Shown here: one piece after another, positions 1 through 38,488 of the stretch
Numbering within the stretch: position 1 is the first letter of the stretch
Layout: every line of letters starts with the position of its first letter
DNA from: Candidatus Binatia bacterium
Lineage (GTDB): Bacteria; Desulfobacterota; Binatia; Bin18
Assembly: GCA_963666315.2 (NCBI GenBank)
Contig: CAXXHG010000043.1
Coordinates: forward strand, 576,001 to 640,000
Length of the DNA stretch: 64,000 nucleotides
Direction of reading: 5' to 3'
The notes under the pieces: model-generated
Databases searched by the model: none
Seen by the model: the letters and a program-made list of their open reading frames with translations, nothing else
What the model was told of the DNA's origin: nothing
Program-made: the position numbers and the translations under genes

Positions 1-20
1 TCCAGATCAAGATATTGCAT

Positions 21-1979
21 TTACATCCACTGCTTATGCCAGGCTTGAAACATCAACACGTTCCACAACGGCCGCTTCCAATCCGATGTTCCAGCTATAT
101 GCTCGGTCCACTTCTGCCGCACCAGGGCTGAGTTGAATATGCCGGTTTGACACAATGCCTGTTCCGACAGCAGCTCCTCTGCCCATTCACGCAACGGTCC
201 GCGCAACCAGCCACTCAGCGGAACCCCAAAACCCTGCTTGGGACGTTCAACAAGCTCACGCGGCACATATTTATACAGTAACTGCCGCAGCAGCCATTTG
301 CCCTGTCCGTTACGGATCTTCATGTGAGCGGGTAGCGTCCAGGTGAACTCGACAATTCGATGATCCAGCAGTGGCACCCGCACTTCAAGACTGACCCCCA
401 TGCTGGCCCGATCGACCTTGGTCAGATTATTATCCGGCAGATAGGAAAGGGTGTCCAAAAACTGCATCTGAGAGACAATGTCCACCGCTGGAGTTGTGTG
501 GTGTGTGAGATACGATTTCTGCGCCCCGTCAGCGTCCGCATTGATAACGAGTCTGGCCGGGTCCTCCCAGCGCCGCCACAGTTGGCGATCGTGTAAGTCG
601 GCTGTATCGAGCGATAATGCACGGGAGAGTTGGTGAGTGTGTTTGACCAAACGAGAGAGTGGTTTAGGTGCAAGTGACTGTACATTTTCTAAGAACGGAG
701 GAAGCAAGCCTGTGGCCTGCGCCAACACAGCACGGACAGGACGTGGCAACCGTGAGAATCGGCCCCATAGCTGGGCGGCTTTGATATAGCGTTTATACCC
801 AGCGAATAGTTCATCGCCGCCGTCTCCGGAGAGCGAAACAGTGACCTCCTGCCGGGCCAAATGCGAGACAAAACAAGTCGGAATCTGCGAGGTGTCAGCA
901 AAGGGCTCATCATACCAGTCAGGCAAGCGTGGCAGGAGGTCTGAGGCGTGACTTGGCTCGACAACAAGTGTCTGATGGTCAGTGCCTAGGTGTCGCCCAA
1001 TGCGCTGCGCATACTGGGATTCATCCCGGCCTGCTTCCTGAAAGCCAATAGTAAACGTCTTGATAGGACGCGGGCTGTGCTGCTGCATGAGCGCGACAAT
1101 GGTTGAAGAATCAATCCCACCCGACAGAAACGCGCCCAGAGGAACATCGGCAACCATACGCCGTTGGACTGCGTCACTCAGTAGGGTTTCGAGTTGGTCC
1201 AGTGCAAGTTGGTCCAATGTTTGTTGATCTCGTGTTTGTCCGTCATCCGCCTGGAGAGGAGCCTCAGTCCCTTGCTGGATAACATGGTTGAGATCCCAAT
1301 AGCGCGTGATGTGTGGCTCGTGCGACGTACGCAGCTGTAACATGCAGCCGGGTTCAAGTTTATACACGTCACGATAAATGCTGTGCGGAGCAGGAATATA
1401 ATTATAGCGCAGAAACGGAATAACCATGTCTCGGTCAAGCCGTGCGTCAAAGCACGGATGCGCTCGTAGCGCTTTCAGCTCAGAACCAAAGAGAAAGACC
1501 TGTCCGAAACGAGCCCAGTAGAGTGGCTTAATGCCGATGCGGTCGCGTACCAGGGTGAGACAGTGTTCTTGGCGATCCCATAGACCAAAGGCAAACATGC
1601 CGAGACAGCGCCTCACCGTCTGTTCGATCCCCCAGGCGGCACACGCTTCAAGCAATACTTCGGAGTCACTGTTCCCGCGGAAGATGTGGCCGTGCGCTTC
1701 GAGGTCTGCGCGGAGTTCCTGAAAGTTATACAGCTCGCCATTATATACCAGCACGAAACGCTCATCCGCAGACAGCATGGGTTGGCGGCCGCTTGGTGAC
1801 AGATCGATGACGGATAAGCGTCGATGTGCAAGACCGATTCCATGTGTCTGATCAACCCAGACCCCATTGTCATCCGGTCCGCGGGATACGAGGGTATCTG
1901 CCATGCGCGTGGCCAGCATTGAGAATTCAGACAGTCGAGGATTTGGAGCAGGGTCCAAAAATCCGCTTATCCCGCACAT
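21..1979 (-). CDS. asnB: Asparagine synthase (glutamine-hydrolysing)-type amidotransferase of the polysaccharide/lipid-cluster class
   Basis: N-terminal MCGISG (Ntn Cys; ATG at 1979), RGPD, HRRLSVIDLS, YNGELYNF, RDRIGIKPLY, LSGGIDSS, SGDGGDELFAGY, KVDRASM, RPKQGF. Confidence 0.92.
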   Translation of the reverse strand: MCGISGFLDPAPNPRLSEFSMLATRMADTLVSRGPDDNGVWVDQTHGIGLAHRRLSVIDLSPSGRQPMLSADERFVLVYNGELYNFQELRADLEAHGHIFRGNSDSEVLLEACAAWGIEQTVRRCLGMFAFGLWDRQEHCLTLVRDRIGIKPLYWARFGQVFLFGSELKALRAHPCFDARLDRDMVIPFLRYNYIPAPHSIYRDVYKLEPGCMLQLRTSHEPHITRYWDLNHVIQQGTEAPLQADDGQTRDQQTLDQLALDQLETLLSDAVQRRMVADVPLGAFLSGGIDSSTIVALMQQHSPRPIKTFTIGFQEAGRDESQYAQRIGRHLGTDHQTLVVEPSHASDLLPRLPDWYDEPFADTSQIPTCFVSHLARQEVTVSLSGDGGDELFAGYKRYIKAAQLWGRFSRLPRPVRAVLAQATGLLPPFLENVQSLAPKPLSRLVKHTHQLSRALSLDTADLHDRQLWRRWEDPARLVINADADGAQKSYLTHHTTPAVDIVSQMQFLDTLSYLPDNNLTKVDRASMGVSLEVRVPLLDHRIVEFTWTLPAHMKIRNGQGKWLLRQLLYKYVPRELVERPKQGFGVPLSGWLRGPLREWAEELLSEQALCQTGIFNSALVRQKWTEHIAGTSDWKRPLWNVLMFQAWHKQWM

Positions 1980-2764
1980 GAGCGGTCCTTTGTCGCTGGA
2001 GGCAACTGTTCCGACCTGCCCGACTGTCCCAGATTTCCCAATTTGGTTTTGACCCAACGCTGGAGTTTTGGGGCTCGGCGCACGTAGTAATGCCGCAGCG
2101 GATTTGCTTGCTCGTCAAATTCGTACACAAACGGCTCGCCTGTAAGCGAACGTTTCACACCTGGGATGTCGTTTTCCGCAATGCCATCAAGATAGGTGGT
2201 CAGTGCACGCAGGCTATTGCCGTGCGCGACTATCAAAATCTGTTTGCCTGCTTTGATCTGGGGAATTATCGTTTCGTGCCAGTAGGGGAGCACGCGCGCG
2301 CGGACGGCTTTGAGGGTTTCTGTGCGTGGCAGTTCTGCGTGTGTAAGCTCGGCATAGCGGGGATCATGGCCGGGAAAGCGCTCGTCTGTTGGGTCGAGGG
2401 CCGGGGGTGCGATATCGAAGTGCTGCTGCCAGATCACGACTTGTTCCCGGCCATAACGCTGGGCGATTTCTTGCCGGCTGAGTCCTTGCAGTGCACCACA
2501 ATGGCGCTCATTCAGCCGCCAGCTTGTATGGATCGGAACCTGGAGCTGCATGCCTTCCAGAACGATCTCAAGTGTATGCAGCGAACGCTGCAGATAGGAG
2601 GTAAAGCCCACGTCAAACGAAAAACCAGCCGCTTGCAGGAGCTGGGCGGCTCGTCTGACTTGCTCTTGGCCGTGTGGACTGAGATCGACATCGGCCCAGC
2701 CGGTAAAGCGACGGGCTTGGTTCCACATACTCTGGCCGTGACGAAGAAGAACAAGTTTGATCAT
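1967..2764 (-). CDS. gpmA: 2,3-bisphosphoglycerate-dependent phosphoglycerate mutase
   Basis: LLRHGQSMWN, FTGWADVDLS, WRLNERHCGALQG, AHGNSLRAL; ATGA overlap with the upstream gene and overlap with the asnB start. Confidence 0.88.
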   Translation of the reverse strand: MIKLVLLRHGQSMWNQARRFTGWADVDLSPHGQEQVRRAAQLLQAAGFSFDVGFTSYLQRSLHTLEIVLEGMQLQVPIHTSWRLNERHCGALQGLSRQEIAQRYGREQVVIWQQHFDIAPPALDPTDERFPGHDPRYAELTHAELPRTETLKAVRARVLPYWHETIIPQIKAGKQILIVAHGNSLRALTTYLDGIAENDIPGVKRSLTGEPFVYEFDEQANPLRHYYVRRAPKLQRWVKTKLGNLGQSGRSEQLPPATKDRSCAG

Positions 2765-5268
2765 ACGACGGTGTGAAAGCCGAGCAGGCGGCGAACCTTT
2801 TGGGCAACCTGGTCAAACTCCTGCAGAGCTGGACGTATCTTAAAATCCAAGGGTGCACCGAAAAAGCGCGCAATCTTGCGCTGGACTAGGGTGTCGTGCA
2901 ACGCGCTCAAATCCCGTCGGGGCTGGACAATGCCGCGTTCAATCAATCGAGCGCACACGTACGACAACCCACTTTGGGGTTGTATGCTGCCGCGCTTTTT
3001 GCGCTGCGTGATTTGGGCATGAGTGACTATCCACTCCTTGCAACTCCCGATCAGGTCCGCCGCTCGCTTTGGCAAGGGATAGATGGAGAGCGGTGTAGCG
3101 GTGGTTGCGGCTTCAGCCAACATGGACTCGCTCTCTCCGCTCACAATCAAAACGTCCGCTAGTGCCAGATAACCCAAATACGGATTGTCTTGCTGCCCCG
3201 CTTCCCAGGTATGCACGTAGTGGGCTGGACCCAGCCCGGCTATCAAGGCGGCTGTTTCCGCCTCGCCCGTTCGTCGGCTGGTCGTGGCAAAAACTTTTCC
3301 ACCCACACGTTCGGCAAACGTGCGGACATCTTCTCCCATTTTCCGGGCAATGCTGGGATCAAGCTGATAGCGGGCGGTCGCCCCTCCGACCAGCAGCATA
3401 ATCCATGGATGCGGAGCGTCCTGAACCAGGTGACACCACTGGTCTGCCCCCTGCTTGAGTCGCTCTGGGGTGATTTGCGTCAAAGGTGCCACAGTTTCGA
3501 TACGCCGAGGATGAGGCGGCAGACGAAAATGACTGCACGCGACCCCGATATCGGTGGTATTGGTGGGCCGGCTGCCTTTACGACCGAGCAGTACCAGCCG
3601 GGTGTGTCCTTTGCTTTGGCGCTGAATCCAGCGCGCAACACGCGCGGGGCGCCAGCCTGCGGTAATAATGAGATCGGGCCAGGGTGGGACAAGTGGGTCG
3701 GAATGGGCGACGTTTAAACCAAATCGCGTTACCCGCTGGGAGCCGAGCAGGCGTTTGTGCACATCAGCCAGCGCAGTAAAGCGTAAGGCCTTAGTTTCAT
3801 ATGGCCAGTCCAGGGCATCGGCGAGACCGAGCGCTTGGGCGGTATGGCCCGGCTTATGTGAGGTCAGGACCCAGACCGTTGGGAGACGGCCGAGGTTGCC
3901 GCCAAAAGAGATCTGGGTGCTGGACTTGGGTGTTGTTGACAACGGTTGGACGGCCAGTTGCCAGCGCACGGAGGGATAACGCGGACTGAGCAGGTCCAAT
4001 TGCGCCTGCCACCAGGTAGAGGGCCGCGGGCGTCCCCGCAACAAGTCGCCATTCGGAAGTTGTTGTTCATACGGAAACGCATGCACGGCGACGGCCACAA
4101 AATGGTGAGCACGGCGAAAGAGCTCTTCCAGCATCCAGGGCACATCTTCGTCTGGCACAAAATCAAGGCTATTCGTACAGACAACGCCGTCCGCGCTTTC
4201 TGCCCGACCGGAGTCGCGGGGGTTGCGGGGGTTGTATGATGCCGACTCGACAAAGACAGGATTATACTGCTGCACGCTGGCCCCGTTGCAACTGATTTGT
4301 CTGCTGCCTAAGCCAAACGAATAGTCCAGGATAGTGTGGCTTCCAGTCTGGGCGATAAGGGTCTCTACACACTTCTGGAGCGGATGGCCGTCACCGTTCC
4401 GGTCTGACACTCTCTGAGGCCGTGATGTCTGCCTGAGACTCGATCCGCTACGGAGGCGAGAGAGCAGCGCGGTGTATTGCGCACTCGGCTGCGCTGCTTG
4501 AAAGACCTGATAGCCGGCCTCATTGGCTGTTTGTTCTAAATGAAACCAAAGCTGGGCGACAGGATTATGCTGATACGCATAACGCTGGGGAAATGGCTGC
4601 CACGGCTGGGTCTGGATGGTGGTGTAGTGCAGCAGCTTCGATCGCTCAGCCTCGTATTCTCCGTCGCGTGCATTCCAGTGTTGATCAAGCGCACCCCATA
4701 GATCAGGGACTTCCCGGGCGGCGGCTTCTAACGCTTTACGGCGTTCGTGCTGCGCCGCTTCGAGTGTCCAGACCGTTTTCATCCGCTCGCAGTCGATCAG
4801 CATGACTGACGTGTCGCGGTCGTTTATAGACAGAAAGCCATGGCTGCCCAGAGCTGTGTCAAAAAGTTCGCCGGGATCGGCCAGATAGATTTGGTCCATG
4901 TCATTATAGATGGCAGTGCCGTGCCCGTCAGCAAAATGGGGAATAGCAAATCGATAGTTCGTAAATCCGGTCAGCCAACCGTGCTGATCAAAACCGGCCA
5001 GGTCTTTCATGAGATATAATTCGTACACCCGAGCGGGATCCCGGACCTGCTCAATGGACCAGATAAAGACGCGCTCGGCTCGGTATTGGGCCGGCTCGGT
5101 GCCAACAAAGATGCGGACCGCTGGCTTTTCGCTGGGAGCAACACCAGTGCGCACACCAAGGACGACACGCTCAAGCTGGGTCCGGGTGCCTGGTGTGTGA
5201 TACGGGTCTGTCCGCAGCAGCGAATCAAGTAATCTGCTCACTCTGCGTGCTGTTGTTGAAAAAGCCAT
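2761..5268 (-). CDS. Three-domain protein: GT-A (GT8-like) glycosyltransferase + class I SAM-methyltransferase-like domain + ELM1/GtrOC1-family domain
   Basis: IFVGTE...TGFTNYRFAIP...AIYNDMDQIYLADP (DxD); ILDYSFG...DGVVCTNSLDFVPDEDVPWMLEELF; KPGHTAQALGLA...PPWPDLIITAG...TTSRRTG...NPYLGYLALAD...SESMLAEA. ATG 5268 preferred over TTG 5286. Confidence 0.7.
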   Translation of the reverse strand: MAFSTTARRVSRLLDSLLRTDPYHTPGTRTQLERVVLGVRTGVAPSEKPAVRIFVGTEPAQYRAERVFIWSIEQVRDPARVYELYLMKDLAGFDQHGWLTGFTNYRFAIPHFADGHGTAIYNDMDQIYLADPGELFDTALGSHGFLSINDRDTSVMLIDCERMKTVWTLEAAQHERRKALEAAAREVPDLWGALDQHWNARDGEYEAERSKLLHYTTIQTQPWQPFPQRYAYQHNPVAQLWFHLEQTANEAGYQVFQAAQPSAQYTALLSRLRSGSSLRQTSRPQRVSDRNGDGHPLQKCVETLIAQTGSHTILDYSFGLGSRQISCNGASVQQYNPVFVESASYNPRNPRDSGRAESADGVVCTNSLDFVPDEDVPWMLEELFRRAHHFVAVAVHAFPYEQQLPNGDLLRGRPRPSTWWQAQLDLLSPRYPSVRWQLAVQPLSTTPKSSTQISFGGNLGRLPTVWVLTSHKPGHTAQALGLADALDWPYETKALRFTALADVHKRLLGSQRVTRFGLNVAHSDPLVPPWPDLIITAGWRPARVARWIQRQSKGHTRLVLLGRKGSRPTNTTDIGVACSHFRLPPHPRRIETVAPLTQITPERLKQGADQWCHLVQDAPHPWIMLLVGGATARYQLDPSIARKMGEDVRTFAERVGGKVFATTSRRTGEAETAALIAGLGPAHYVHTWEAGQQDNPYLGYLALADVLIVSGESESMLAEAATTATPLSIYPLPKRAADLIGSCKEWIVTHAQITQRKKRGSIQPQSGLSYVCARLIERGIVQPRRDLSALHDTLVQRKIARFFGAPLDFKIRPALQEFDQVAQKVRRLLGFHTVV

Positions 5269-5409
5269 AGGTCTACGACTAGGCAATTTTTTGTACGTAA
5301 GGGCGAGAAACGGCTGTGGCTATCGGTCTGATGCGGCCCGGGTAGGCACGGGCAAAGACAAGCAGCAGATGCATGACTAGAGGAACTCCCTAGTGGAGCA
5401 TGTGGAGCA

Positions 5410-6657
5410 TCATGATGCCTGCGTTCCAAGCAGATGTTTGCGGTTCCAGAACTGGACTAAACGCAGGGTGTGGAAGCCGAGTGAGGCCACCTGCCAGACA
5501 ACAATGGCAACAAAGACGGGAATCGGAATGTCAAGAAGTAATCCCAGCATAAACAGCGGCACATTGATATTCCGGCGCGAAATAAAGGTCCGCATGCGTT
5601 CATCTAGGGAGGTGTAACCGTGAATCGACTGGCCCATCCGGGCGCTAAACAGCCCGGCCACAATACGATCCAGAACATAAAAGACAGCCATCCACACCGC
5701 CAGTTGGAAGACGGGTGCGCCCGGTATCCCGCCACTTAATGCCCAAGCCCAGGCGAAATACCACACTGGAGGATGAACGATATCCAGCCCATGATCCAAG
5801 ATATCGCCGAGCTTGGACGCCGTGAATGTGAGCCGGGCCAACTTGCCGTCCACCGAGTCGAGTACGCTCATGGTGTAGGCGAGCGTAAAGGCCGAGATCC
5901 AGTATCCGTACGCGAAGAGCGGCACAGCGAGAAAGGTGATGAAGACATTAAATACCGAGATGACGTTAGGATGTACGCGCCAGCGGGCGAACGGACGTAC
6001 GGCACGCCATACCAGTGGCGGGTAGACATATTTGGTAAAAAAGTCGGTCGAGCCTTTATAGTTGGACCAAAACAGAAAGCGTTCGGCCCGGTCTCGGCTG
6101 GCTGTGTCCAGAATGCGAAAAAGATATACGGGCAGATCACGCCGGAGCTTGCGAATATACGACGGCACTTCGGCCAGTACGACTTCCTGGAGGCGGCCTG
6201 CCTGAAGACTGCGTTCCGCAAGCTTCGGCAGCCGGATTCCGGTTGAAGGGGGCAGGGGGTCCTGTCCTTCGAAACGAAGTGCAGCAGTCTGTGCTTCTCC
6301 GGCTTTTCCCCGAGCGGCCCAAGAACCCGAGCACTCGCCAAGATGGCGCAACAGGCGGCTATCCACAACAGCGTCCGCCTCTAGTGCGAGCAGCGGTTCG
6401 TTTTGGACCGTTTGAGACAGCGTCGTCCGATATTCCGACACTGTGCGACGTTCATGCCCCCAGCGTATCGAAAGCCGGCGCAGGAGATCCGGTGGCAGGA
6501 GCGAAGGAAGATCTACCGTCTCAGCAGAGAGCTGGACATAGACTTCGTTCGGGTCTAGCCCAGCTTCGATAATGGTATGTAGCTGGCGTTCGAGCAGCGT
6601 CATGCCGAAAATCCGCAGTCTGCTGCTCGGATTGGTCGCGTCTATCCAGATAAACAA
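5410..6657 (-). CDS. CDP-alcohol phosphatidyltransferase with an N-terminal degenerate NTP-transferase-like domain (CpgA-like paralogue)
   Basis: DSVDGKLARLTFTASKLGDILDHGLD matches DxxDGxxAR(x8)GxxxDxxxD; N-terminal IFGMTLLERQL; several TM helices. Confidence 0.8.
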   Translation of the reverse strand: MFIWIDATNPSSRLRIFGMTLLERQLHTIIEAGLDPNEVYVQLSAETVDLPSLLPPDLLRRLSIRWGHERRTVSEYRTTLSQTVQNEPLLALEADAVVDSRLLRHLGECSGSWAARGKAGEAQTAALRFEGQDPLPPSTGIRLPKLAERSLQAGRLQEVVLAEVPSYIRKLRRDLPVYLFRILDTASRDRAERFLFWSNYKGSTDFFTKYVYPPLVWRAVRPFARWRVHPNVISVFNVFITFLAVPLFAYGYWISAFTLAYTMSVLDSVDGKLARLTFTASKLGDILDHGLDIVHPPVWYFAWAWALSGGIPGAPVFQLAVWMAVFYVLDRIVAGLFSARMGQSIHGYTSLDERMRTFISRRNINVPLFMLGLLLDIPIPVFVAIVVWQVASLGFHTLRLVQFWNRKHLLGTQAS

Positions 6658-6797
6658 GAATCTTTACCCCCTGTGCGGATGCCCATTCCCCACCATTCCC
6701 TATCCTAGGTGCAGGGTAGTCTAGCTGGGTGATGATGACGGCGAAAGAGAGGCGCGCTGGCTGTCTACGGCTCAGGCGGCAGTCTAGAGAGGAGGAA

Positions 6798-6825
6798 TTG
6801 CGCAGTTGCGTACGCCGTCTACAAT
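6798..6825 (+). promoter_or_regulatory. Putative sigma70 promoter, possibly leaderless, for the 6832 gene
   Basis: TTGCGC-16 nt-TACAAT with the -10 box ending 6 nt before the GTG start at 6832; no SD adjacent to the start. Confidence 0.4.
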
Positions 6826-6831
6826 GCCGGC

Positions 6832-7674
6832 GTGGCTAGCGTGTTGGATCAGAAGGGAGACCCAGGAGCCCATAGTTCTGTCACGGCATTTGTTCTTGCC
6901 GGACGACGTGGGCCGACGGATGCCTTAGCTCAGGTGACAGGCCAGACGCATAAAGCCTGTATTCCCGTCGCTGGCGTGCCCATGCTGGCTCGGGTGCTGC
7001 GTAGCCTGGGCAGTACGCCACACGTACAGAAAATTGTGGTCAGCATTGACGAGACCAGCGTGTTGACTGCCCTGCCTGAGGCAGGAGCAATAGAGTTCCA
7101 CACGAGCCGCCACTCGCCGCCGGCAAGTGTTTTGGACTATTATGAGGCGCACCAGGGAGATGGCCCGCTACTGGTGACGACTGCCGATCATGCCTTACTT
7201 TCCCCACAGATGCTGGAGTATTTCTGTACAGCAGCCGAACAAACTGAGGCCGATGTGGTTGTTGGCGTAGTCACCGCTGCGCTTTTTCGATCTCAGTATC
7301 CGGATTCGCGCCGCACGTTTATCACGCTTCAGGATGAGAGTTTTTGCGGAACCAATCTTTTTCTTCTTCGTACGCCACAGGCAGCGAATGCCGTGCGGTT
7401 CTGGGAACGAGCCGGACGGTTCCGCAAGCGCCCCTGGCGCTTGGTGAGTGAGTTTGGTTTTGTGAACCTGCTGCGCTTTCTCTTTCGCAGGCTAGATCGT
7501 CGGACCGCTATAGAACAGGCTAGTCAGGTGTTGGAAGCGCAAGTGGGCATCGTTGAGATGCCGTTTGCAGAGGCAGCGATCGACGTGGATACTCGAGACG
7601 ACTTGGCTACTGTCGAGAATATTTTGGCGAGACGCGCGAGACAGGACGCTGCGCTTTCAGGGAAAGAGTCTTAG
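6832..7674 (+). CDS. cpgD: Nucleotidyltransferase (MobA/NTP_transf_3 type), CpgD-like phosphoglycerate cytidylyltransferase
   Basis: VLAGRRG..D.LA...G..HKA.IPVAGVPML.RVL, LVTTADHALL, GTNLF, AAIDVD; sphingolipid-cluster context. Confidence 0.65.
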   Translation: MASVLDQKGDPGAHSSVTAFVLAGRRGPTDALAQVTGQTHKACIPVAGVPMLARVLRSLGSTPHVQKIVVSIDETSVLTALPEAGAIEFHTSRHSPPASVLDYYEAHQGDGPLLVTTADHALLSPQMLEYFCTAAEQTEADVVVGVVTAALFRSQYPDSRRTFITLQDESFCGTNLFLLRTPQAANAVRFWERAGRFRKRPWRLVSEFGFVNLLRFLFRRLDRRTAIEQASQVLEAQVGIVEMPFAEAAIDVDTRDDLATVENILARRARQDAALSGKES

Positions 7675-7859: not shown

Positions 7860-8585
7860 ATGTCGGAGAGCAAAGACCCCAAAGAAATCCTGGAACAGAC
7901 ACAGCAGCCGTTCAGCTCACCTGGATTTGATACATGGACGGCTGCCTGGGCCGTCTCGAAACGAAGAAAGAAACAGGCGTCACCGCCCGCGCCAGATACC
8001 ACGTCGGACACGCTGCGAGCCGTGGAAAATGATCCGGAAACACTACGCAGGAGAACCGAGAATCTGTTTCAGGGCCCAGTGTTGGATACGTGGACGGCTG
8101 CCTGGGCGGCTTCAAAAGGAAAAATAAAGGCGCGGCCACAACGCAAAAAAGACAATGCCACGGTCGTGCGACAGATCTATACGGATATCTATACAGGTAT
8201 CTCGACAGATATCTCGCAAAACGAGCTGGCTGCAGTTCTGCAAGCGCTTGCTGAGAATCAGACGCTTGCTGAGAATATTGAGTGGCAGTCGCCCGGACCA
8301 AAGGAAATTCCTTGGGCTGGAACTATCCGGGGTCGAGAGCAGGTGGCGCAGTGGTTTGCCATACTCGACGAAACGAGAGAGCTTGAACAATTTGTACCGC
8401 GAGAATTTATCGCCCAAGGAAATCAGGTTGTTGTGATGTGCGACGAACGCAGCCGGGTGAAAGCGACCGGCAAAGTGTATGAGGTGGCCTTGGTTGCCGT
8501 ATGGACGCTTCTCAATGGGACGGTCACTCACTACCGCGAGTCCTATGACACAGCGACGGTGTTGGCTGCATTATGGGCAGAGTAG
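7860..8585 (+). CDS. SnoaL/NTF2-like (ketosteroid isomerase-like) protein with a duplicated N-terminal repeat
   Basis: C-terminal LAENIEWQSPG...PWAG..RGREQV..WF...EFIAQGNQVVV...YDT; SD AAGGA upstream. Confidence 0.7.
   Translation: MSESKDPKEILEQTQQPFSSPGFDTWTAAWAVSKRRKKQASPPAPDTTSDTLRAVENDPETLRRRTENLFQGPVLDTWTAAWAASKGKIKARPQRKKDNATVVRQIYTDIYTGISTDISQNELAAVLQALAENQTLAENIEWQSPGPKEIPWAGTIRGREQVAQWFAILDETRELEQFVPREFIAQGNQVVVMCDERSRVKATGKVYEVALVAVWTLLNGTVTHYRESYDTATVLAALWAE
7929..8107 (+). repeat. Intragenic direct repeat with 156-nt (52-aa) spacing
   Basis: gatacatggacggctgcctgggc (7929) and gatacgtggacggctgcctgggc (8085), both encoding DTWTAAWA. Confidence 0.8.
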
Positions 8586-9973: not shown

Positions 9974-10933
9974 CTAGAGTAATTGTTCACTCAGGTGATG
10001 GAAGCTGGCATCTTCGGAACTGTACTCGCGGGTAGTGAGCAAAATGCCGAAACGCGGTCTGCCGTTTGCCTCTTGTTGCTGCTCGATTCGATACAAATGG
10101 TAGTGTGAACGCCGCTGTGGCCGGCGTCCAATGGCTGAAGACGCCCGGACTCCGACAACGGGAATCGGTCCGTGTGGTCCTGGAACACTCGCCCGTATGG
10201 TTTTGTGAATATGGCCGTGCAGAATGAGCTCGGCGCCGGTTTTAGCAATCACACGGCGAAAGGCGTCGGCATCCGTCAGCCTGCGACGGGCTGCCGTGTG
10301 CATCTCTTGCGGCGGATGGTGAATAAGAACGACCCGGCATAAGCGGGTTTCCGCCAGAGCGCTGAGAAGCTGTTCGAGTCGCTGCAGTTGACTCCGGCCT
10401 ACCTCTCCTGAGGCATACAAAGGCGCGGTTGCCTGTGCTGTTGAGACACCCACGACAGCAATGGGCCCACAGGTTCGGATAGTCGGGAAATTGGACGCGG
10501 TATGATTTGCGATATGATTTGAAAGAAGCGCAAGCAAGTCTGACGCAGCACTCGATAAATTGTCGGAGCGCATATAGTCGCTCCAATAATCCCAGGGGAA
10601 GCGTTCACTACTGGGTGTATAGGTATCGTGATTTCCGGGGATGAGAGAAACCTGTTGTGGACCGCCCAGCCGTTGAAGCCATGGCAGCGAGGCGGAGAAT
10701 TCGTCTTCCAGCGCAATGTTTGTCAGATCTCCCGTAATCACAAGGTGGTCTGGCTGCTGGGTACGCAAATCGGTGGCAAGAGCGGCCAATACCTCGGGTC
10801 GGTACTCCTTACGTCGACGCAAGGACCATGACAACGCGCCTAAGGCGCGCTTATTCAGGAATGCCCTAGGGTGTCGGAGACGGATTGGGGTCACGTGGAG
10901 GTCTGACAAATGGGCAAGTATGAAAACTGACAT
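9974..10933 (-). CDS. Calcineurin-like metallophosphoesterase
   Basis: AHLSDLH, TGDLTN, PGNHD, HHPP, LHGHIH; start ATG at 10933. Confidence 0.85.
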   Translation of the reverse strand: MSVFILAHLSDLHVTPIRLRHPRAFLNKRALGALSWSLRRRKEYRPEVLAALATDLRTQQPDHLVITGDLTNIALEDEFSASLPWLQRLGGPQQVSLIPGNHDTYTPSSERFPWDYWSDYMRSDNLSSAASDLLALLSNHIANHTASNFPTIRTCGPIAVVGVSTAQATAPLYASGEVGRSQLQRLEQLLSALAETRLCRVVLIHHPPQEMHTAARRRLTDADAFRRVIAKTGAELILHGHIHKTIRASVPGPHGPIPVVGVRASSAIGRRPQRRSHYHLYRIEQQQEANGRPRFGILLTTREYSSEDASFHHLSEQLL

Positions 10934-11005
10934 AATCCCTAAGTTATTCAGCCTATACCACTTCCCTAGGGTATGATAAGACCGCTCTTCCGCAGGAGCA
11001 CAGGC

Positions 11006-12223
11006 ATGAAGCAGGTGGCAGGCGCAGAAAATGTCCACGCGTGGATAGTCAACACGCCGAGCCATCCGAGCGATGCCGCCGACAGCCCTATCGAGATTTG
11101 GGGTCTTTCTCCGCTAGAGCGCCTGCGCCGCAGCCTACACGCGGCCGGCGTCCCTGACAGCTATATCTATACCGGCGCAGCCGTGCCGGCCAGTGCGCAA
11201 GGCGCGCCGGTTATTCTTGTGCGGGCGGATTACGTTTTCGACGAACGTTTGATCCGTGCGCTTATTGAACAAAAGCCGACGCGCGGCGTGGTCCTGGTCG
11301 ATCCAGATAATCAGACGGCAGTAGCGGCAGTGACAACGCGCGACCAGCTTGATGCGGTCTTACCTGTTCTTCTTGATGCAGCAGAAATCCCTACTGAGCA
11401 ACCCAACAATGTCGACTACCTTGAGCCTGCAGCGCTGGTCTCGGCCTATTCGTCTGCGCTGCGAAAATTCGATCCGCCGTATCTCCTTCCCATTCGGTCA
11501 GAGAAACTCATGCAGATTGAGAATCGTATTTTTGGCGCATCGTATAAGGGCATTACCGATGTGGTGACAAAGTGGGTCTGGCCGCTGCCTGCGCGTGCGG
11601 TAACACGACTTTTAGCCCGATTACACGTTTGTCCTAATGTGGTGACCGGGCTCAGTTGGGTGCTGGTGGGTGCTGCGACCTGGCTCTTTGTGCAGGGACA
11701 CTTCGGCCTGGGATTGCTGTGTGCCTGGCTCATGACCTTTCTGGATACGGTGGACGGGAAGCTGGCCCGGGTCACCTTTACCTCAAGTCGGGTCGGGCAT
11801 GTCCTGGATCATGGCCTTGACCTTGTCCATCCGCCGTTTTGGTATCTCGCCTGGGTGGCGGGATTGTCCGGCAGGGTCTCTCTTGCCGTCATCTGGGCTG
11901 ATCCTACGACGGCGATTATCATTGGCGGCTATATCATAGGCCGGTTGCTGGAGGGCCTGTTTGTGCTGGCCTTCCATATGGAAATCCACTCGTGGCGACC
12001 GGTTGATTCGTTCTTTCGTACCATTACCGCCCGCCGGAATCCTAATCTGATCCTGCTCACTCTAGGGACCTGCGCCAGCCGGCCCGACCTGGGCTTCTGG
12101 TTGGTCGCTGTTTGGACGGTGTGTTCTCTTGTGTTTCATACCGTGCGATTCGGCCAAGCCTTTGTCCAACGCTGGTACGGCCAGCCTATTCAGACCTGGC
12201 AAGTATCCAGGACGCCGGCATGA
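11006..12223 (+). CDS. cpgA: CDP-alcohol phosphatidyltransferase, CpgA-like
   Basis: YKGITDVVTKWVWP, DTVDGKLARVTFTSSRVGHVLDHGLD, ITARRNPN; SD AGGAG before ATG 11006; heads an operon with the kinase and cpgC-like gene. Confidence 0.75.
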   Translation: MKQVAGAENVHAWIVNTPSHPSDAADSPIEIWGLSPLERLRRSLHAAGVPDSYIYTGAAVPASAQGAPVILVRADYVFDERLIRALIEQKPTRGVVLVDPDNQTAVAAVTTRDQLDAVLPVLLDAAEIPTEQPNNVDYLEPAALVSAYSSALRKFDPPYLLPIRSEKLMQIENRIFGASYKGITDVVTKWVWPLPARAVTRLLARLHVCPNVVTGLSWVLVGAATWLFVQGHFGLGLLCAWLMTFLDTVDGKLARVTFTSSRVGHVLDHGLDLVHPPFWYLAWVAGLSGRVSLAVIWADPTTAIIIGGYIIGRLLEGLFVLAFHMEIHSWRPVDSFFRTITARRNPNLILLTLGTCASRPDLGFWLVAVWTVCSLVFHTVRFGQAFVQRWYGQPIQTWQVSRTPA

Positions 12224-13452
12224 GTCGCATGAGTAGACGGACGTGTTCGTCTCCCGTTTCTCAACTCAGACGCGTCTTTTGGACCGTGCCGGTTGGATTT
12301 CCCTATATCTTCAGAATTTTCGGAATTGTCGGAATCCTCGGAGTTCTCGCAATTTTGGGAGGAGTTCCCACATTTGGCTTATGGACGGGCTGGAGTGGCG
12401 ATCTCTTTGCCGCAGCTGAGCGCGGAAATCCGGCCGCCCGCCTACTGCCGGGAGAGCTTGCCCACGAGCGGTGGGATCTGACTGCCCGGTTCGATTCCGG
12501 CCATTTTCTGTTCGCTGAATTTTTGATCACCAACTTTGGGCTTGGTGATCGGAACGCTGCAGTGATTGGTCATGTCGTTCGACCCAACGGTCAGAGCCGG
12601 CGATTTCGGAACGGTCGGCGTGAAAGTCGATGGCAGCTCTCGTCAGATCGGCTCCGGATGGAAGTCGGGTCGAGTCTGCTCGACCAACGCAGCCCAAAAC
12701 ATCAGCTGCGGGTCAGGAAGAAGAGTACGCAGATTGAGCTGGATTTTTATCCGCGCGGGCCGGCTGTCTGGGCAGCTGATTTTCCGCCATCCGGTTACGC
12801 GCTGGATCTGCTTGATCCTGCTGCACGGGCTGAGGGGTCTGTCTGGGTCAAAGGCATGGACACGCCGGTGACGGTACACGGGACTGTCGCCGTCACCCAT
12901 AGCTGGGCGAATGAGGCGGAATCTGATCTGGTGCTGCGTCGGCTGGAATTCTTTTTGTTTCCGGATAAGCAAAGTGAGATGTCGCTCTACTTAGCGGATC
13001 TCACGACACCCCACGGAGCCCACAGCCGTTGGCTTGTTGTCAAAAACGGACAACAGGTGGTCCACGAGGCGCAAAATTTTCAGCTTACGTTTGACGGGAA
13101 TGTGAAAAATATCGGGTCCTACCATGTCCCCCAACAGTTCTCTTTTGAGAGTACAGCTGCCCATCCACACATAAAAGGCCGGGTTCAGCTCGACCGGGTG
13201 CTCCTGCTGTATAATCCTCTGGATGATATCCCGCAGCCCTTTCGCTTTCTGATCTCTCTCAAGCTGAAACCGCGTCGGGTGTGGCTCCTGTCGCCTTTCG
13301 AAATAATCTTCCAGCCGGACCAGGCGCGTGCATCAATTACGCTGACAGGCACTGGCATCACAAAAGTCTCGTTTCTCAACCCCTTAGCCCCCACCGCGAC
13401 CGGATGTAACGGTCTCGGTTTTTCAGGGATTTCGTGCGACTGGGCCTTTTAA
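12220..13452 (+). CDS. Membrane-anchored beta-rich hypothetical protein, possible AttH/Svf1-like lipocalin fold
   Basis: ATGA overlap with cpgA; one N-terminal TM helix; ERWDLTARFDSGHFLFAEFLITNFG followed by alternating beta-strand patterns. Confidence 0.55.
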   Translation: MSRMSRRTCSSPVSQLRRVFWTVPVGFPYIFRIFGIVGILGVLAILGGVPTFGLWTGWSGDLFAAAERGNPAARLLPGELAHERWDLTARFDSGHFLFAEFLITNFGLGDRNAAVIGHVVRPNGQSRRFRNGRRESRWQLSSDRLRMEVGSSLLDQRSPKHQLRVRKKSTQIELDFYPRGPAVWAADFPPSGYALDLLDPAARAEGSVWVKGMDTPVTVHGTVAVTHSWANEAESDLVLRRLEFFLFPDKQSEMSLYLADLTTPHGAHSRWLVVKNGQQVVHEAQNFQLTFDGNVKNIGSYHVPQQFSFESTAAHPHIKGRVQLDRVLLLYNPLDDIPQPFRFLISLKLKPRRVWLLSPFEIIFQPDQARASITLTGTGITKVSFLNPLAPTATGCNGLGFSGISCDWAF

Positions 13453-14432
13453 GCAATTGCCGGGCTGGTCTTAAGAAAGGCCACCTTGGCGCGCTTGGGC
13501 GCGTCCTTAAGGCTGCTCCAGATGTGGTGCATATCGAGACCGCTGGCAGCGAGGAGGTGCCCGAGGCGTTAGCCCGCTTAGCGCGTCAGGAAGTTACAGT
13601 GCTGGCTGTGAATGGCGGGGACGGGACGCTGCAGCATGTACTGACCGAAGTTTTAAGCAGCAATATCTTCGAGACGCTGCCCTGTATTGCCCCTCTGTGC
13701 GGTGGACGAACAAACATGAGCGCGCATGATATCGGCAGTCGTGGCAAGCCGGCTGCTGGCCTTGCTACGCTCATGAGTAGCGTGCAAGCGAATACGCTTG
13801 GACAACGGATTGTCGAACGGCCTGTGTTGCGCATTGACTGCGGGCCACACCAGCGTCCTCAATATGGGATGTTCTTCGGCGCAGGCGTCATCCAACGGGC
13901 GCTGGCTTTTAAGCATCAGCTGTATCCCCAGCAGCGCTTGCAAGGACTGTTTGGGGCGGGGCTCTTCTTGGGTGGGACGTTGCTGCGGATCGCGTGTGGT
14001 GCGCAAACCGGACTCCTGACACCGGACGAAATTGGGATAGGTCTGCACGCTGAGCATGGTGAGCAGTATGTGAATGATGAGTGTGTTCCGCTGGCACACC
14101 TGGAACGGGAACGGTTCCAACTGCTGATGGCTACAACGCTTGCGCGTCTTTTTCTCCGCATTCGCCCGTTTTGGGGACGAGAAGATGCTGCAGTCCGATT
14201 TACCTCTATCGCGGCAAGAGCGAAGCGGAGTCTTCCTGCTGTGCTAAAAATCTTGCGGGGGCTGCCACCTGCGCCGTCCATTAGCGCGAGCGGCTATTGC
14301 AGCCGAAATGTTGAGAGTGTGACCTTACACATGGACTGTGGTTTCACGATTGATGGCGAACTGTTCGACCCGGAGCCAGGACGAACAGTCCGTCTTGAGG
14401 CCGACCATAGACTCCGTTTTGTGCGAGCATGA
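13434..14432 (+). CDS. cpgB: Diacylglycerol/sphingosine kinase family, CpgB-like ceramide kinase
   Basis: VNGGDGTL, GGRTNM, GMFFGAG, FTIDGE; position between cpgA-like and cpgC-like genes. Confidence 0.78.
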   Translation: MRLGLLSNCRAGLKKGHLGALGRVLKAAPDVVHIETAGSEEVPEALARLARQEVTVLAVNGGDGTLQHVLTEVLSSNIFETLPCIAPLCGGRTNMSAHDIGSRGKPAAGLATLMSSVQANTLGQRIVERPVLRIDCGPHQRPQYGMFFGAGVIQRALAFKHQLYPQQRLQGLFGAGLFLGGTLLRIACGAQTGLLTPDEIGIGLHAEHGEQYVNDECVPLAHLERERFQLLMATTLARLFLRIRPFWGREDAAVRFTSIAARAKRSLPAVLKILRGLPPAPSISASGYCSRNVESVTLHMDCGFTIDGELFDPEPGRTVRLEADHRLRFVRA

Positions 14433-15433
14433 GTGATATGGACGGACCTGCAACATCCCTCGGTGCAGCACCTGACATGCTCCTGACCGAGCTCTTTTTG
14501 AAAGAGTTGACCCAGCCTGTTCCACAAGAAGCTGACATTATCGCTGCTGAAATTCAGCGCCGTCACGGTCAGGCCGTGGATGCCGTGCTTTTTTACGGCT
14601 CCTGCCTGCGTACTCAGCAGATGACCGACGCTGTGCTAGATTTTTATGTTCTGGTCCGCTCATATCCGGCGGCGTATGAAAAGCCCATACTGAGATGGCT
14701 GAATGCACTCCTGCCACCAAACGTGTTCTATCTTGAGATAGGACATGCGCCGCAGACGCTGCGAGCAAAGTATGCCGTTATCTCGACTGTGGATTTTGAG
14801 CAGGCGACTACTCCACGCAGCATTCCTGCCATTATATGGGCGCGGTTTTGCCAGCCCGCACGGCTTGTGTATGCACGCGATAGTGTCGTGCAAGAAAGAG
14901 TGGCGCAGGCAACAGCGCAAGCCGCGCTGACGTTCATAAGACGGGCGGTCCTCTTTTTCGCTTCTCCGGAGGGTGATCTGCCTATTCCCTGTGCCGACCT
15001 GTGGCACACCGGATTCCAAGAAACTTACCGTACAGAGTTTCGTACCGAACGACCAGAAACCATTCGTGCCTTATACAAAGCAAGCCCTGAGCGATACGAC
15101 CGGATAGCGCGGTGCGGACTCCAACGACTTCAACAGCAACGCGTGTTTGACCTCCAAGAGCAAGGCGGGCAGTGGACGCTGTCTATGCCGCTGCTTCAAC
15201 GGTGGACGAGACGCTGCGGCTGGACCCTGCGCCGTTCCTTGGCAAAAATGCTGTATGCTTTGCGGCTCTTCAAGACGGCGCTGACCTTTGGAGATTGGCT
15301 GCCCTATGTCCTGTGGAAGCTGGGGCGGCATACTGGGGTGTGGGTTGAGCTGTCTGAGCGGCAGCGCCGCTACCCATTGATCTGGGGCTGGCCGGTGCTG
15401 TTTAAGCTTCTTCGGCAACGTGTTCTTCGATAA
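14429..15433 (+). CDS. cpgC: Pol-beta-type nucleotidyltransferase-fold protein, CpgC-like
   Basis: VLFYGSCLR...LDFYVLV, LLPPNVFY, AKYAV, WARFCQP, TYRTEFRTE, YVLWKL.RHTG; ATGA overlap with the kinase. Confidence 0.65.
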   Translation: MSDMDGPATSLGAAPDMLLTELFLKELTQPVPQEADIIAAEIQRRHGQAVDAVLFYGSCLRTQQMTDAVLDFYVLVRSYPAAYEKPILRWLNALLPPNVFYLEIGHAPQTLRAKYAVISTVDFEQATTPRSIPAIIWARFCQPARLVYARDSVVQERVAQATAQAALTFIRRAVLFFASPEGDLPIPCADLWHTGFQETYRTEFRTERPETIRALYKASPERYDRIARCGLQRLQQQRVFDLQEQGGQWTLSMPLLQRWTRRCGWTLRRSLAKMLYALRLFKTALTFGDWLPYVLWKLGRHTGVWVELSERQRRYPLIWGWPVLFKLLRQRVLR

Positions 15434-16518: not shown

Positions 16519-16750
16519 TCTTTTTTCCTAATCTTGCCTAGTCCCGCCTAGTCTTGCTTACCCCCGCTCATAACAAAGCCGGCTTCTATAAGAGCGCCCT
16601 AGGCCGCCTTGTCAAGAGAGATCTCTGGGAAGTCGAAGAGGGGGTCAATTGAGTAACATCGTTATTTCTAGTAAAACAACTGTGAAGTGGGTATGCCCTT
16701 GGCTAAATCCGGAAAATCTGTTACCTACCGTGCGATTTCATCGTGATTCA

Positions 16751-17785
16751 ATGGCTTCTGTGAGCATCTTGGTGACAATACCACGTGCGCCGGTGGTGAA
16801 GGCAGATTCTCGCGTCCTTGTGACTGGAGGAACTGGATTCATCGGATCACACTTCATCGACGCGCTTGTTGAACAAGGCGTGCGACCGCGCGTGCTCGTG
16901 CGTCGCACGAGTAATGTCTCTCAGCTCTCGGCACATGATCTCGAACTTATGACAGGCTCATTAGAAGATTCCGACAGTCTGGCCCGTGCGGTATCTGGGG
17001 TTGAGGTTGTCATCCATATCGCGGCCATAACAAAGGCGCCCACAGAGAAAAAATATTTGCGCGCTAACGCGGCCGGTACCCAAGCGCTTGTTGATGCAAT
17101 GCGCTCTGCTGAGCCACGTCCTCGACGGCTCGTCTATCTCAGTTCGCTTGCGGCAGCTGGGCCAGTGTTGGATGGACAACCCTTCGGACCAGACGACGCG
17201 CCACGACCTATTACTGCGTATGGACGAAGCAAGCTCATTGGTGAGCAAGCCTGTCTTGCTGCGTCTGACGCATTCGACGTTGTTGTCTTGCGTGCACCAG
17301 TGGTGTACGGACCACGAGAACGTGATTTTTTCTTGCTCTTTCGTTTGGCGACTCGGGGCATTTTGCCTACGCCAACGGGACCGGACCGCGTTGTCCAGCT
17401 CATCCATGTTGCGGATTTAGTTGAGGCGCTGATCCGTGGAGCAACAATGCCCGACGCACGTGGCATCTATCACGTAGCCGAATCACAATCCTATGCCTGG
17501 AGCGAGATTGCCGCGTGTATGGGGCGAGCAGTTGGGCGCTCAGTCCACCTGGTGCGTATCCCACAGCTCTTGATGCAAATTGCCGCAGCAGGCAGTGAAG
17601 TCGGGGCGGCAATAATAGGACGGGCGACCATATTTAATCGGGAAAAAGTCAAGGAGTTACTCGCTCCCGGCTGGTTGTGCGAAACGGCACTGGCCAGGCA
17701 AGAGCTAGGATTTGAGGCCAAGATTTCGCTTTCGACAGGATTTGCTGAAACAGCAGCATGGTATAAACGCAAGGCATGGTTGTAG
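16751..17785 (+). CDS. cerR: NAD-dependent epimerase/dehydratase-family SDR, CerR-like ceramide reductase
   Basis: VTGGTGFIG, YLSSLAA, YGRSK, VYGPR; directly upstream of spt; start uncertain. Confidence 0.75.
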   Translation: MASVSILVTIPRAPVVKADSRVLVTGGTGFIGSHFIDALVEQGVRPRVLVRRTSNVSQLSAHDLELMTGSLEDSDSLARAVSGVEVVIHIAAITKAPTEKKYLRANAAGTQALVDAMRSAEPRPRRLVYLSSLAAAGPVLDGQPFGPDDAPRPITAYGRSKLIGEQACLAASDAFDVVVLRAPVVYGPRERDFFLLFRLATRGILPTPTGPDRVVQLIHVADLVEALIRGATMPDARGIYHVAESQSYAWSEIAACMGRAVGRSVHLVRIPQLLMQIAAAGSEVGAAIIGRATIFNREKVKELLAPGWLCETALARQELGFEAKISLSTGFAETAAWYKRKAWL

Positions 17786-17884
17786 TGTGGAAGGTCGTGG
17801 AGCCTGGAGGGGTGAGATGAAACCGGGACCACAACATGTCGCTAAAACTGACAATCTGGGATGTCACGGAGAGAGGGGGACGGG

Positions 17885-19087: not shown

Positions 19088-19127
19088 TTCTTGGCTGGCC
19101 TGTCTCTGCTAGCGGGCAAGGTCGAGC

Positions 19128-20252: not shown

Positions 20253-20269
20253 GGGGCGTCTCGAAAGAC

Positions 20270-20325
20270 GAGGGGCGAGGTGACCTCTCCCGGGCACCGC
20301 ATGCTGGCCGACTGGTCTCCCCTAC
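20270..20325. repeat. Degenerate GTAG-type REP doublet between convergent genes
   Basis: aggggcgaggtgacctctccc ... ggccgactggtctcccctac, resembling the element at 22414. Confidence 0.45.
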
Positions 20326-20335
20326 CTGTGAAGGT

Positions 20336-20917
20336 TTAGCCCTTATTCGCGTTCGCATCCACCATTTTCTGCATTTGCGGATCAAGCTCCACGCCTAAGC
20401 CGTCGGCCAGGCGATCCATAAAATTGAATGTGCAGGTGATGAGAACGATATCGACCACGTTCTCTTCGCTAAAGCCGTACTGTTGTAAGAACTCTGTATC
20501 TTCGCGCTTTACGCTGGATGGCTGCTTGGTCAGTTTCAGCGCAAAGTCGATCATGGCACGATCCTGGGCTTCGAGTGGCGCGTTTTCCGGATCGGTCTTG
20601 AGATGCTTCACCAGTGTGTGGTCGCCGGTTTCCATACGCAGAAACTCTGCGTGCGAAGACGTTCAATAGTGGCAGTGGTTCAGCGCAGACACGGCTGTGG
20701 CAATCATCTCCTCCCGTTTGCGACCGAGTGTTGAAGCCCCAAACGTGATCCCCATATTCATGCGCCACACGCTCAGTAATGCCTCTGGTCGCAGTCCCAT
20801 GGAATTAATCACATTTGGAACTCGGCCCGCGCCGAGAGGATGGTCCATGACCTCCTTATAGACCTCGGCGAGGCGGCTGGTTGTCTCGTTTTCTGCAAAT
20901 GTTTTTACCCAAGCCAT
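20336..20917 (-). CDS. AhpD/carboxymuconolactone-decarboxylase-family peroxidase, selenoprotein (CxxU)
   Basis: ORFs 20663-20917 and 20336-20635 share a frame; AVSALNHCHY-UGA(20663-65)-TSSHAEFLR places UGA at the second Cys of CxxCxxxH; downstream hairpin; C-terminal FNFMDRLADGLGV; SD GGAGG. Confidence 0.88.
20636..20652 (-). promoter_or_regulatory. Putative bacterial SECIS hairpin
   Basis: mRNA UGA + 10 nt + ACGCAGA-GUU-UCUGCGU: perfect 7-bp stem with a G-first GU loop 17 nt after the UGA. Confidence 0.7.
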
Positions 20918-36325: not shown

Positions 36326-36333
36326 GACGACAT

Positions 36334-36366: not shown

Positions 36367-36388
36367 TAAGGATCGGAAAGGATTCCGT

Positions 36389-38464: not shown

Positions 38465-38488
38465 GCAGCGCTGTGCCTGGCGAGTAAC

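Follow-up and report, generated by a model that had tools for sequence, protein, structure and literature searches.

A three-domain transferase, a phosphoglycerate mutase paralogue and an occasional amidotransferase in a Caulobacter-type sphingolipid cluster of a Binatia bacterium

Genes of the locus and their Caulobacter counterparts

We analysed a stretch of 64,000 nucleotides from a Candidatus Binatia bacterium (the window; G000:C43:576001-640000, where G000 is the genome under study and other G and L numbers denote comparison genomes and loci). Our subject is the left end of the window, positions 1-7674, which carries genes for a transferase fusion (fus841), a phosphoglycerate mutase (gpmA2), an AsnB-type amidotransferase (asnB), the end of an oxygenase gene, and two enzymes related to the ceramide-phosphoglycerate (CPG and CPG2) sphingolipid pathway of Caulobacter. 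Open reading frame (ORF) and domain searches found five ORFs, at 21-2057(-), 1967-2764(-), 2761-5286(-), 5410-6657(-) and 6832-7674(+). Their positions and two overlaps (2761/2764 and 1967/1979) had been given in an earlier reading made from the letters alone (the sequence-only reading), and both proved exact. The ATGA at 2761-2764 is the stop codon of fus841 and the start codon of gpmA2 together. The true start of asnB is the ATG at 1979 (M-C-G-I), and the TAA stop of gpmA2 lies at 1969-1967, giving an overlap of 13 nt. Further right in the window we found a Caulobacter-type sphingolipid set comprising a metallophosphoesterase, a second cytidine diphosphate (CDP)-alcohol transferase, a diacylglycerol kinase-type kinase, a cpgC-like gene, a desaturase/hydroxylase, cerR, spt and cerS (Table 1).

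Table 1. Features at the left end of the window and in the adjoining sphingolipid genes. GT, glycosyltransferase; SAM, S-adenosylmethionine; 2OG, 2-oxoglutarate; BPG, bisphosphoglycerate; TM, transmembrane; pLDDT, predicted local distance difference test.
Feature	Position	Strand	Evidence
Predicted 2OG-Fe(II) oxygenase, 237 aa	1..20 (whole gene C43:575307-576020)	-	abuts asnB stop
asnB, glutamine-dependent AsnB-type amidotransferase, 652 aa from MCGI start	21..1979	-	Asn_synthase 398 bits, with GATase_6/7; ORF 21-2057
gpmA2, predicted long-form 2,3-BPG-dependent phosphoglycerate mutase paralogue, 265 aa	1967..2764	-	NF010713 315.8, cut-off 305
fus841 C-terminal domain, aa 468-841, predicted ELM1/KdoT-like GT-B	2761..3885	-	PF06258 178.4 bits, cut-off 27
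fus841 middle domain, aa 268-467, predicted class I SAM-methyltransferase fold	3886..4485	-	predicted model, pLDDT ~80
fus841 N-terminal domain, aa 1-265, possible GT-A (GT8-like)	4492..5286	-	marginal profile match
Scar of deleted MsbA/PglK/HepA-like ABC exporter gene	5287..5409	.	comparison with relatives
CDPOH_2, CpgA paralogue (CDP-alcohol phosphotransferase, ~200 aa N-terminal cytoplasmic domain)	5410..6657	-	PF01066 37.2 bits
CC_1153-type nucleotidyltransferase, NTP_transf_3	6832..7674	+	tblastn onto Caulobacter gene beside cerS
SnoaL-like protein, after nucleotidyltransferase	7860..8585	+	PF12680 32.3 bits; position kept across genus
Metallophosphoesterase, CC_1158 homologue	9974..11065	-	37% identity
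cpgA orthologue	10973..12223	+	48.5% identity over 369 aa to Caulobacter CpgA
Protein with one N-terminal TM segment, between cpgA and cpgB	12112..13452	+	no family match (domain and family searches)
cpgB (ceramide kinase type) and cpgC homologue	13434..15433	+	domain search and Caulobacter comparison
cerR, spt, cerS (ceramide synthesis)	16649..20252	+	domain search and Caulobacter comparison

To compare these genes with known ones, the Caulobacter vibrioides locus was fetched via the cpgD start primer printed in PMC12275187 and the proteins were aligned by tblastn. The CC_1152 (CpgD), CC_1153, CC_1158 and CC_1159 genes are required for CPG2 in Caulobacter (PMC11324152). The comparison established the gene identities and the Caulobacter orthologies: homologues of cpgA, cpgB, cpgC, CC_1158, CC_1153, cerS, spt and cerR lie in the window, and cpgD is on another contig, C7. 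Unlike the cluster of Caulobacter crescentus, the G000-type cluster also has a CpgA paralogue, a three-domain transferase, a phosphoglycerate mutase, a 2-oxoglutarate (2OG)-Fe(II) oxygenase, an ABC exporter (lost in G000) and, in some species, AsnB. No tblastn match to these additions was obtained in a 40-kb stretch of the Caulobacter cluster, except that the CpgA paralogue matched cpgA.

The paralogy of the CDP-alcohol transferase is clear. CDP-alcohol phosphotransferases share the consensus D-x2-D-G-x2-A-R-x8-G-x3-D-x3-D, and we found the full signature, as DSVDGKLARLTFTASKLGDILDHGLD, together with at least three transmembrane segments predicted from the sequence, in the protein encoded at 5410-6657. 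The signature is also complete in the protein encoded at 10973-12223. Caulobacter has a single gene of this type, and CpgA is 34% identical over 240 aa to the 5410-6657 protein, against 48.5% over 369 aa for the 10973-12223 protein (tblastn); the 5410-6657 gene is therefore a paralogue and not the cpgA orthologue. By its signature, its product is predicted to be catalytically intact.

The gene at 6832-7674 had been called cpgD-like. We found instead that its product is a homologue of CC_1153, the Caulobacter gene between cerS and cpgD (32.5% identity over 249 aa), and that it does not map onto cpgD (CCNA_01210/CC_1152) by tblastn. It is the only match of CC_1153 in G000 at E<=1e-10, its nearest PDB sequence is TTHA0179 (2DPW), and genes of its type adjoin cerS or cpgB in other families. 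Caulobacter CpgD had eight matches in G000, none of them at 6832-7674; the best, at C7:71717-72430 (52% identity, E 7e-69), is the CpgD orthologue.

The C7 gene heads an operon (G000:C7:69516-74869; locus L090 9516-14869) that also contains class I methyltransferase and APH-family kinase genes and runs divergently from a gene for a 759-aa LptF/LptG fusion. The kinase may be an additional enzyme, so far undescribed, of head-group or precursor synthesis. Homologues of the 12112-13452 protein, which was not found in the Caulobacter cluster, adjoin the fusion gene in other families (loci L101, L102, L108, L109 and L124).

In relatives, a gene for an ABC exporter of 585-650 aa stands between the CDP-alcohol transferase and fusion genes. 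About 1.64 kb is gone at this point in G000 relative to G013 and G015, leaving a gap of 123 bp, and no orthologue of the exporter was found elsewhere in G000. An assembly artefact was considered and rejected, as contigs of sequencing runs X1, X2 and X6, from three studies, bridge the same junction; X1 may be the source sample. The exporter is kept in all four other asnB carriers in which that stretch is assembled.

The transferase fusion and its linkage to sphingolipid genes

The product of fus841 has 841 aa, and its only Pfam match is PF06258 (Elm1) at residues 479-741. It had been described as a glycosyltransferase (GT) fusion. The fusion stood up, and its content was resolved into three parts: a possible GT-A domain, a methyltransferase fold and a KdoT/ELM1-like GT-B domain. 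Within the last of these we found an SRRT motif at residues 670-673, which is kept in 24 of 25 family matches; in 12 matches from other families the same position reads S[RPA]R[TS], in which the second Arg never changes. The available part of PMC12856342 describes SRRT as needed for transfer from cytidine monophosphate (CMP)-Kdo (3-deoxy-D-manno-oct-2-ulosonic acid) by Acinetobacter KdoT, the only characterised bacterial ELM1-like protein. G000 encodes both KdsB and WaaA, indicating that CMP-Kdo is available in the cell. We conclude that the C-terminal domain is a predicted KdoT-like GT-B. It shares the PF06258 domain and the SRRT motif with Acinetobacter baumannii KdoT (A1S_2903), and differs from it in being fused to two further domains and in lying in a sphingolipid cluster.

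The other two domains are less readily placed. No match to the first 470 residues was found in Pfam (E<=5), NCBIfam or a PDB sequence search, the middle domain again having no Pfam match, and a Foldseek search with the model of both domains returned nothing at E<=0.001. VIA-align of the middle domain gave a best Z of 10.0 (5UFM, root-mean-square deviation 4.3 Å over 162 aa). Almost every one of the 50 best matches was a methyltransferase, and residues 268-467 are accordingly modelled as a predicted class I S-adenosylmethionine (SAM)-methyltransferase fold. The Atlas feature matches of fus841 likewise pointed to methyltransferase/GT fusions. For the N-terminal domain, a profile search against the PDB gave a marginal best match to the GT8 region of WbbM around a D-x-D (E 0.044), and an N128-D129-x-D131 block is invariant in the alignment of homologues. 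Since residues 1-265 are poorly modelled, we treat 'GT-A' as a lead only.

In other families (loci L107-L120) a second, stand-alone ELM1-like gene lies between the fusion and oxygenase genes. Its product is 32-35% identical to the C-terminal domain of fus841, and G058 carries two copies of the fusion module.

Next, we examined how the fusion gene is distributed, using the family of G000 (55 genomes of 10 genera, 28 genomes being of the same genus as G000) and a class sample of 401 genomes. The fusion protein was found in 45 of the 55 family genomes and cpgC in 47. Across the class sample, 75 genomes had both (one of them the unpublished genome G216), 7 had the fusion with cpgC not found, 14 had cpgC with the fusion not found, and neither was found in 305. 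By family, seven had both, eleven had neither and two were discordant. We give these values as counts, with no statistical test, because related genomes are not independent.

Gene contexts in other families agree with this pattern. We inspected 20 stretches of 20 kb from seven families. In 19 of them at least one of cerS, the CC_1153 homologue, cpgB, cpgC, spt and cpgA stands no more than 20 kb from the fusion gene; 17 hold an exporter gene and 12 the oxygenase gene. Typically, the oxygenase gene, the second ELM1-like gene, gpmA2 in some cases, the fusion gene and the exporter gene run one way, and the CC_1153 homologue, cpgB and cpgC diverge from them. The module that recurs consists of a CpgA-paralogous CDP-alcohol phosphotransferase, a divergent CC_1153-type nucleotidyltransferase, an MsbA-like ABC exporter (deleted in G000), the three-domain transferase, a long-form phosphoglycerate mutase and a 2OG-Fe(II) oxygenase. 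The position of the fusion gene beside sphingolipid genes in 19 of the 20 contexts, together with its co-occurrence with cpgC, shows that the module is linked to CPG genes across seven families and is a conserved part of the CPG-type cluster of this class. Caulobacter is without this transferase/oxygenase/exporter module.

These counts bear on whether the module instead decorates the lipopolysaccharide (LPS) core or some other glycan and only neighbours the sphingolipid genes. Several of them speak against such a role: 75 of the 82 carriers of the fusion gene have cpgC, only 7 of the 312 genomes without cpgC have the fusion gene, the genes around it in 19 of 20 contexts include cerS, the CC_1153 homologue and cpgB, and the module itself includes a CpgA paralogue and the only CC_1153 homologue of G000. 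The case for LPS draws on KdoT, the sole characterised relative, which adds Kdo to the lipid A core (PMC12856342, in its accessible part), on the presence of KdsB and WaaA in G000, on the resemblance of the exporter to MsbA, PglK and HepA, and on genus g4, where the module is separated from the CPG genes. On this evidence we regard an LPS or other glycan target as very unlikely.

The oxygenase gene starts at window base 20, right after the stop codon of asnB, and extends beyond the left edge of the window. PF13640 matched its product at 24.5 bits, under the cut-off of 27; nevertheless H125, D127 and H197, which form an H-x-D...H triad, and R210 are invariant in 22 sequences. Its model (pLDDT 83) had as best PDB folds PasI (9EI6/9EI7, E 2e-11, TM-score 0.70-0.78) and PolD (9BLQ), above PHD2; Foldseek returned 357 matches at E<=0.001, and the best 48 of the 357 were all 2OG oxygenases. 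The protein, modelled with a double-stranded beta-helix fold and carrying the iron triad, is thus a predicted 2OG-Fe(II) oxygenase. The ligand of 9EI7 is octanosyl acid 2-phosphate, according to the entry title. PasI and PolD act as 2OG oxygenases in pathways to nucleoside antibiotics. The operon oxygenase resembles them most closely in structure, at a sequence identity of only 16-20%.

A duplicated phosphoglycerate mutase and a sporadic amidotransferase

The gpmA2 product aligns full length to solved 2,3-bisphosphoglycerate-dependent phosphoglycerate mutases (dPGMs; 3LNT 281.9 bits, 1E58 274.8 bits) and has the motifs RHGQSMWN, RLNERH and AHGNSLRAL, in which RHG and HGNS are kept. RHG and HGN are the catalytic motifs of dPGM. 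By alignment, the 1967-2764 protein is predicted to be such a mutase, and in full-length similarity and motifs it is like E. coli-type GpmA. It differs in being a second copy, beside a short dPGM of 203 aa at C18, and in lying inside a lipid head-group operon. The cofactor-independent mutase was not found in G000.

The two mutases have different distributions. Of the 28 genus genomes, 26 have the short dPGM; it was not found in the other two, which are drafts 80-81% complete. The long form is present in 30 of the 55 family genomes: 21 of 28 of the genus, 7 of 8 of genus g4, and G044 and G029. We found gpmA2 in 14 of 20 contexts from the family, abutting the fusion gene every time, and beside the fusion gene in 6 of the 20 contexts from other families (five families), so that the linkage of the two genes is conserved across six families. 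The sequence-only reading had named, as a result that would count against it, a gpmA that is the sole housekeeping mutase with no conserved linkage; the short dPGM at C18 and the linkage to the fusion gene remove that objection and make gpmA2 a true paralogue. One genome, G021, is without the fusion gene and still keeps gpmA2.

CpgD forms CDP-glycerate with a preference for D-2-phosphoglycerate, and the authors of that work suggested a dedicated supplier of phosphoglycerate and left as a question which isomer is physiological (PMC12275187). A dedicated mutase fits both the preference and the suggestion. A mutase paralogue fixed in the cluster in six families provides independent genomic support for 2-phosphoglycerate as the precursor.

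The asnB product has an N-terminal Cys, a glutamine amidotransferase (GATase) domain and a PP-loop synthetase domain (LSGGIDSS in the alignment). As an XrtA/PEP-CTERM system amidotransferase (TIGR03108) it scored 608.8, below the cut-off of 816.9, and this assignment was rejected. Among solved structures its nearest relative is the hydroxyamidotransferase 7YLZ (214.9 bits, with 125.3 bits for E. coli AsnB), whose substrate carboxylate is not that of aspartate. WbpS is likewise an AsnB-type amidotransferase with a non-aspartate carboxylate as its target. Like the non-aspartate types, such as the meso-diaminopimelate (mDAP) AsnB and the TsnB9-like 7YLZ, the operon protein combines a Cys glutaminase with a PP-loop synthetase and is encoded at an envelope biosynthesis locus; unlike them, it still scores as an asparagine synthase equivalog.

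The sequence-only reading had counted asnB among the members of the pathway. This could not be upheld, as the gene is a lineage-restricted insert. It is present in the operon in 7 of the 28 genus genomes (G000, G009, G012, G013, G014, G015 and G027), always in the slot between gpmA2 and the oxygenase gene, and was found in none of the 20 contexts from other families; most congeners are without it. Absence from other families and from most congeners indicates that it is not integral to the module. Where it occurs, it has diverged in step with its neighbours: against G013, G027 and G012 the identities are 91, 81 and 60% for asnB, 90, 73 and 61% for gpmA2, and 88, 77 and 60% for the oxygenase. 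A tree built from three operon proteins (26 rows) calls for three or more gains or losses to explain where asnB occurs, and the gene is therefore either an old resident lost repeatedly or a gene that moved together with the operon. The same reading had allowed that asnB might serve a polysaccharide encoded left of the window. In the 18 kb there we found no polysaccharide or glycan cluster, the genes being an Abi fragment, a luciferase-like oxygenase gene, a gene without an assigned role, BamD and sulfur-assimilation genes. The fragment is of an Abi_alpha (abortive infection) gene (locus L009 15959-16438) and lies between the oxygenase and luciferase-like monooxygenase genes.

We next considered whether asnB is just a metabolic gene for asparagine synthesis that came to lie in the operon, with no part in the lipid pathway. 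The protein exceeds the cut-off for asparagine synthase (TIGR01536, 478.8 against 267), asnB is the only true AsnB-family (Asn_synthase) gene in G000, the AsnRS of G000 needs free asparagine, and carriage within the genus is patchy. Nevertheless, no AsnB-family protein was found at E<=1e-20 in 18 of the 27 congeners and AsnA was found in none of the 28 genus genomes, yet AsnRS is present in 26 of the 28. The genus is thus not dependent on AsnB for asparagine, and with GatB encoded in G000 a tRNA-dependent supply is likely. Furthermore, in all seven carriers asnB keeps the same slot and coupled start and stop codons, down to 60% identity; as described above, E. coli AsnB is a more distant relative than a hydroxyamidotransferase that does not use aspartate; and in G017 a non-operon paralogue, 48% identical, lies among glycosyltransferase genes, in a glycan cluster. 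Taken together, these observations make an exclusive role in asparagine synthesis unlikely. The 18 congeners with AsnRS and without AsnA or AsnB suggest the tRNA-dependent asparagine route in their own right. Such synthesis occurs in Deinococcus and Thermus.

Because this genus can do without AsnB for its asparagine, it is plausible that AsnB amidates one of the carboxylates of the head group. Glycerate and an acidic sugar supplied by the KdoT-like domain are equally plausible as targets. The sporadic presence of asnB, with carriers and non-carriers in one genus, constitutes a natural experiment on head-group amidation.

A proposed head-group pathway

The locus is a previously undescribed variant of the CPG2-type pathway. 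We consider it probable, with moderate confidence, that positions 1-7674 of the window are the head-group-elaborating end of a Caulobacter-type CPG/CPG2 sphingolipid cluster, with an optional amidotransferase. In such a pathway, GpmA2 would enlarge the pool of 2-phosphoglycerate from which the true CpgD, encoded on C7, would make CDP-glycerate, and CpgA and its paralogue would transfer phosphoglycerate units. The transferase fusion may then add one or two more residues, one of which may be an acidic sugar or acid from a CMP- or CDP-activated donor, and the 2OG oxygenase would alter the residue so added. Where present, AsnB would most likely turn one head-group carboxylate, of glycerate or of the acidic sugar, into a carboxamide, leaving less negative charge.

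A bolder version, which we offer tentatively and think rather doubtful, is that the product is a sphingolipid-anchored mimic of the LPS core. Here a ceramide-phosphoglycerate would receive a Kdo-like acidic residue from the GT-A/KdoT-like fusion, be oxidised by the PasI/PolD-like oxygenase and be flipped by its own MsbA-like exporter; the dedicated mutase would feed the pathway, and in a few species, including G000, an AsnB-made carboxamide would tune surface charge.

The sequence-only reading had proposed a more specific route, in which GpmA2 converts 3-phosphoglycerate to 2-phosphoglycerate, CDP-glycerate is formed and amidated by AsnB, and the second CDP-alcohol transferase transfers the product to give a glyceramide-2-phosphate ceramide. 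Its chemical precedent was borne out, since D-glyceramide 2-phosphate is a constituent of the Providencia alcalifaciens O22 O-antigen as described in the available text of PMC6222762; this is the group that the route supposes, hypothetically, for the present lipid. A preprint on Providencia (10.1101/2022.04.05.486866) mentions neither O22 nor phosphoglycerate, asnB or an amidotransferase. AsnB homologues also amidate envelope carboxylates, such as mDAP in Bacillus and Listeria (PMC5485061 and PMC8554201, available parts). The mutase linked to the module, the D-2-phosphoglycerate preference of CpgD (PMC12275187), the intact catalytic signature of the CpgA paralogue and the 13-nt overlap of asnB with the end of gpmA2 are all compatible with the route. 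Other findings speak against it. The protein supposed to be CpgD, at 6832, is the CC_1153 homologue, and the real CpgD is unlinked. The second transferase and gpmA2 are kept without asnB in most genomes, indicating that they are not there for an amidated product, and an acidic sugar introduced by the KdoT-like domain would offer a carboxylate just as readily. A literature search, with subscription journals outside its scope, found no paper on amidated CPG or on asnB or gpmA in sphingolipid clusters. We therefore hold this exact route to be improbable and keep to the broader reading of an elaborated CPG-type head group with optional amidation.

Several observations weigh against that broader reading as well. 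The exporter deletion means that the pathway may be impaired in G000, and the module is often decayed in relatives (loci L046, L059, L058, L050, L051 and L095): 6 of the 20 family contexts are without gpmA2, CDPOH_2 has an internal deletion in G002 and G022, stop codons interrupt the fusion gene in G016, and only its ELM1 part is left in G010 and G023. The GT-A assignment of the N-terminal domain is weak. G000 also makes LPS with Kdo, as KdsB and WaaA are present, and the KdoT-like domain could act on LPS. In four genomes of genus g4 (G030, G033, G035 and G036) the operon-linked long dPGM is the only one at E<=1e-15, and in these genomes it may serve as the housekeeping mutase. The asparagine synthase score of AsnB, its standing as the only such enzyme in a genome with AsnRS, and its absence from other families' contexts, all given above, count in the same direction.

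In Caulobacter, CPG2 synthesis is only partly worked out, and the activities of CpgA, CpgC, CC_1153 and CC_1158 are among the gaps. The transferase/oxygenase/exporter module implies that many environmental bacteria have sphingolipids more elaborate than CPG2, and richer head groups bear on outer-membrane charge, sensitivity to polymyxin-type peptides and phage receptors. We consider the dedicated mutase and the conserved transferase/oxygenase/exporter module to be more interesting than amidation.

Two other features of the window lie beyond the sphingolipid genes. About 1.1 kb following cerS (20253-21422) contains no ORF of at least 100 aa on either strand. Further right, positions 33407-43752 hold a pentose-phosphate/Entner-Doudoroff-type block with genes for a 972-aa fusion of transaldolase and phosphoglucose isomerase (PGI), transketolase, RpiA, 6PGDH, G6PDH, glucokinase and 6-phosphogluconolactonase.

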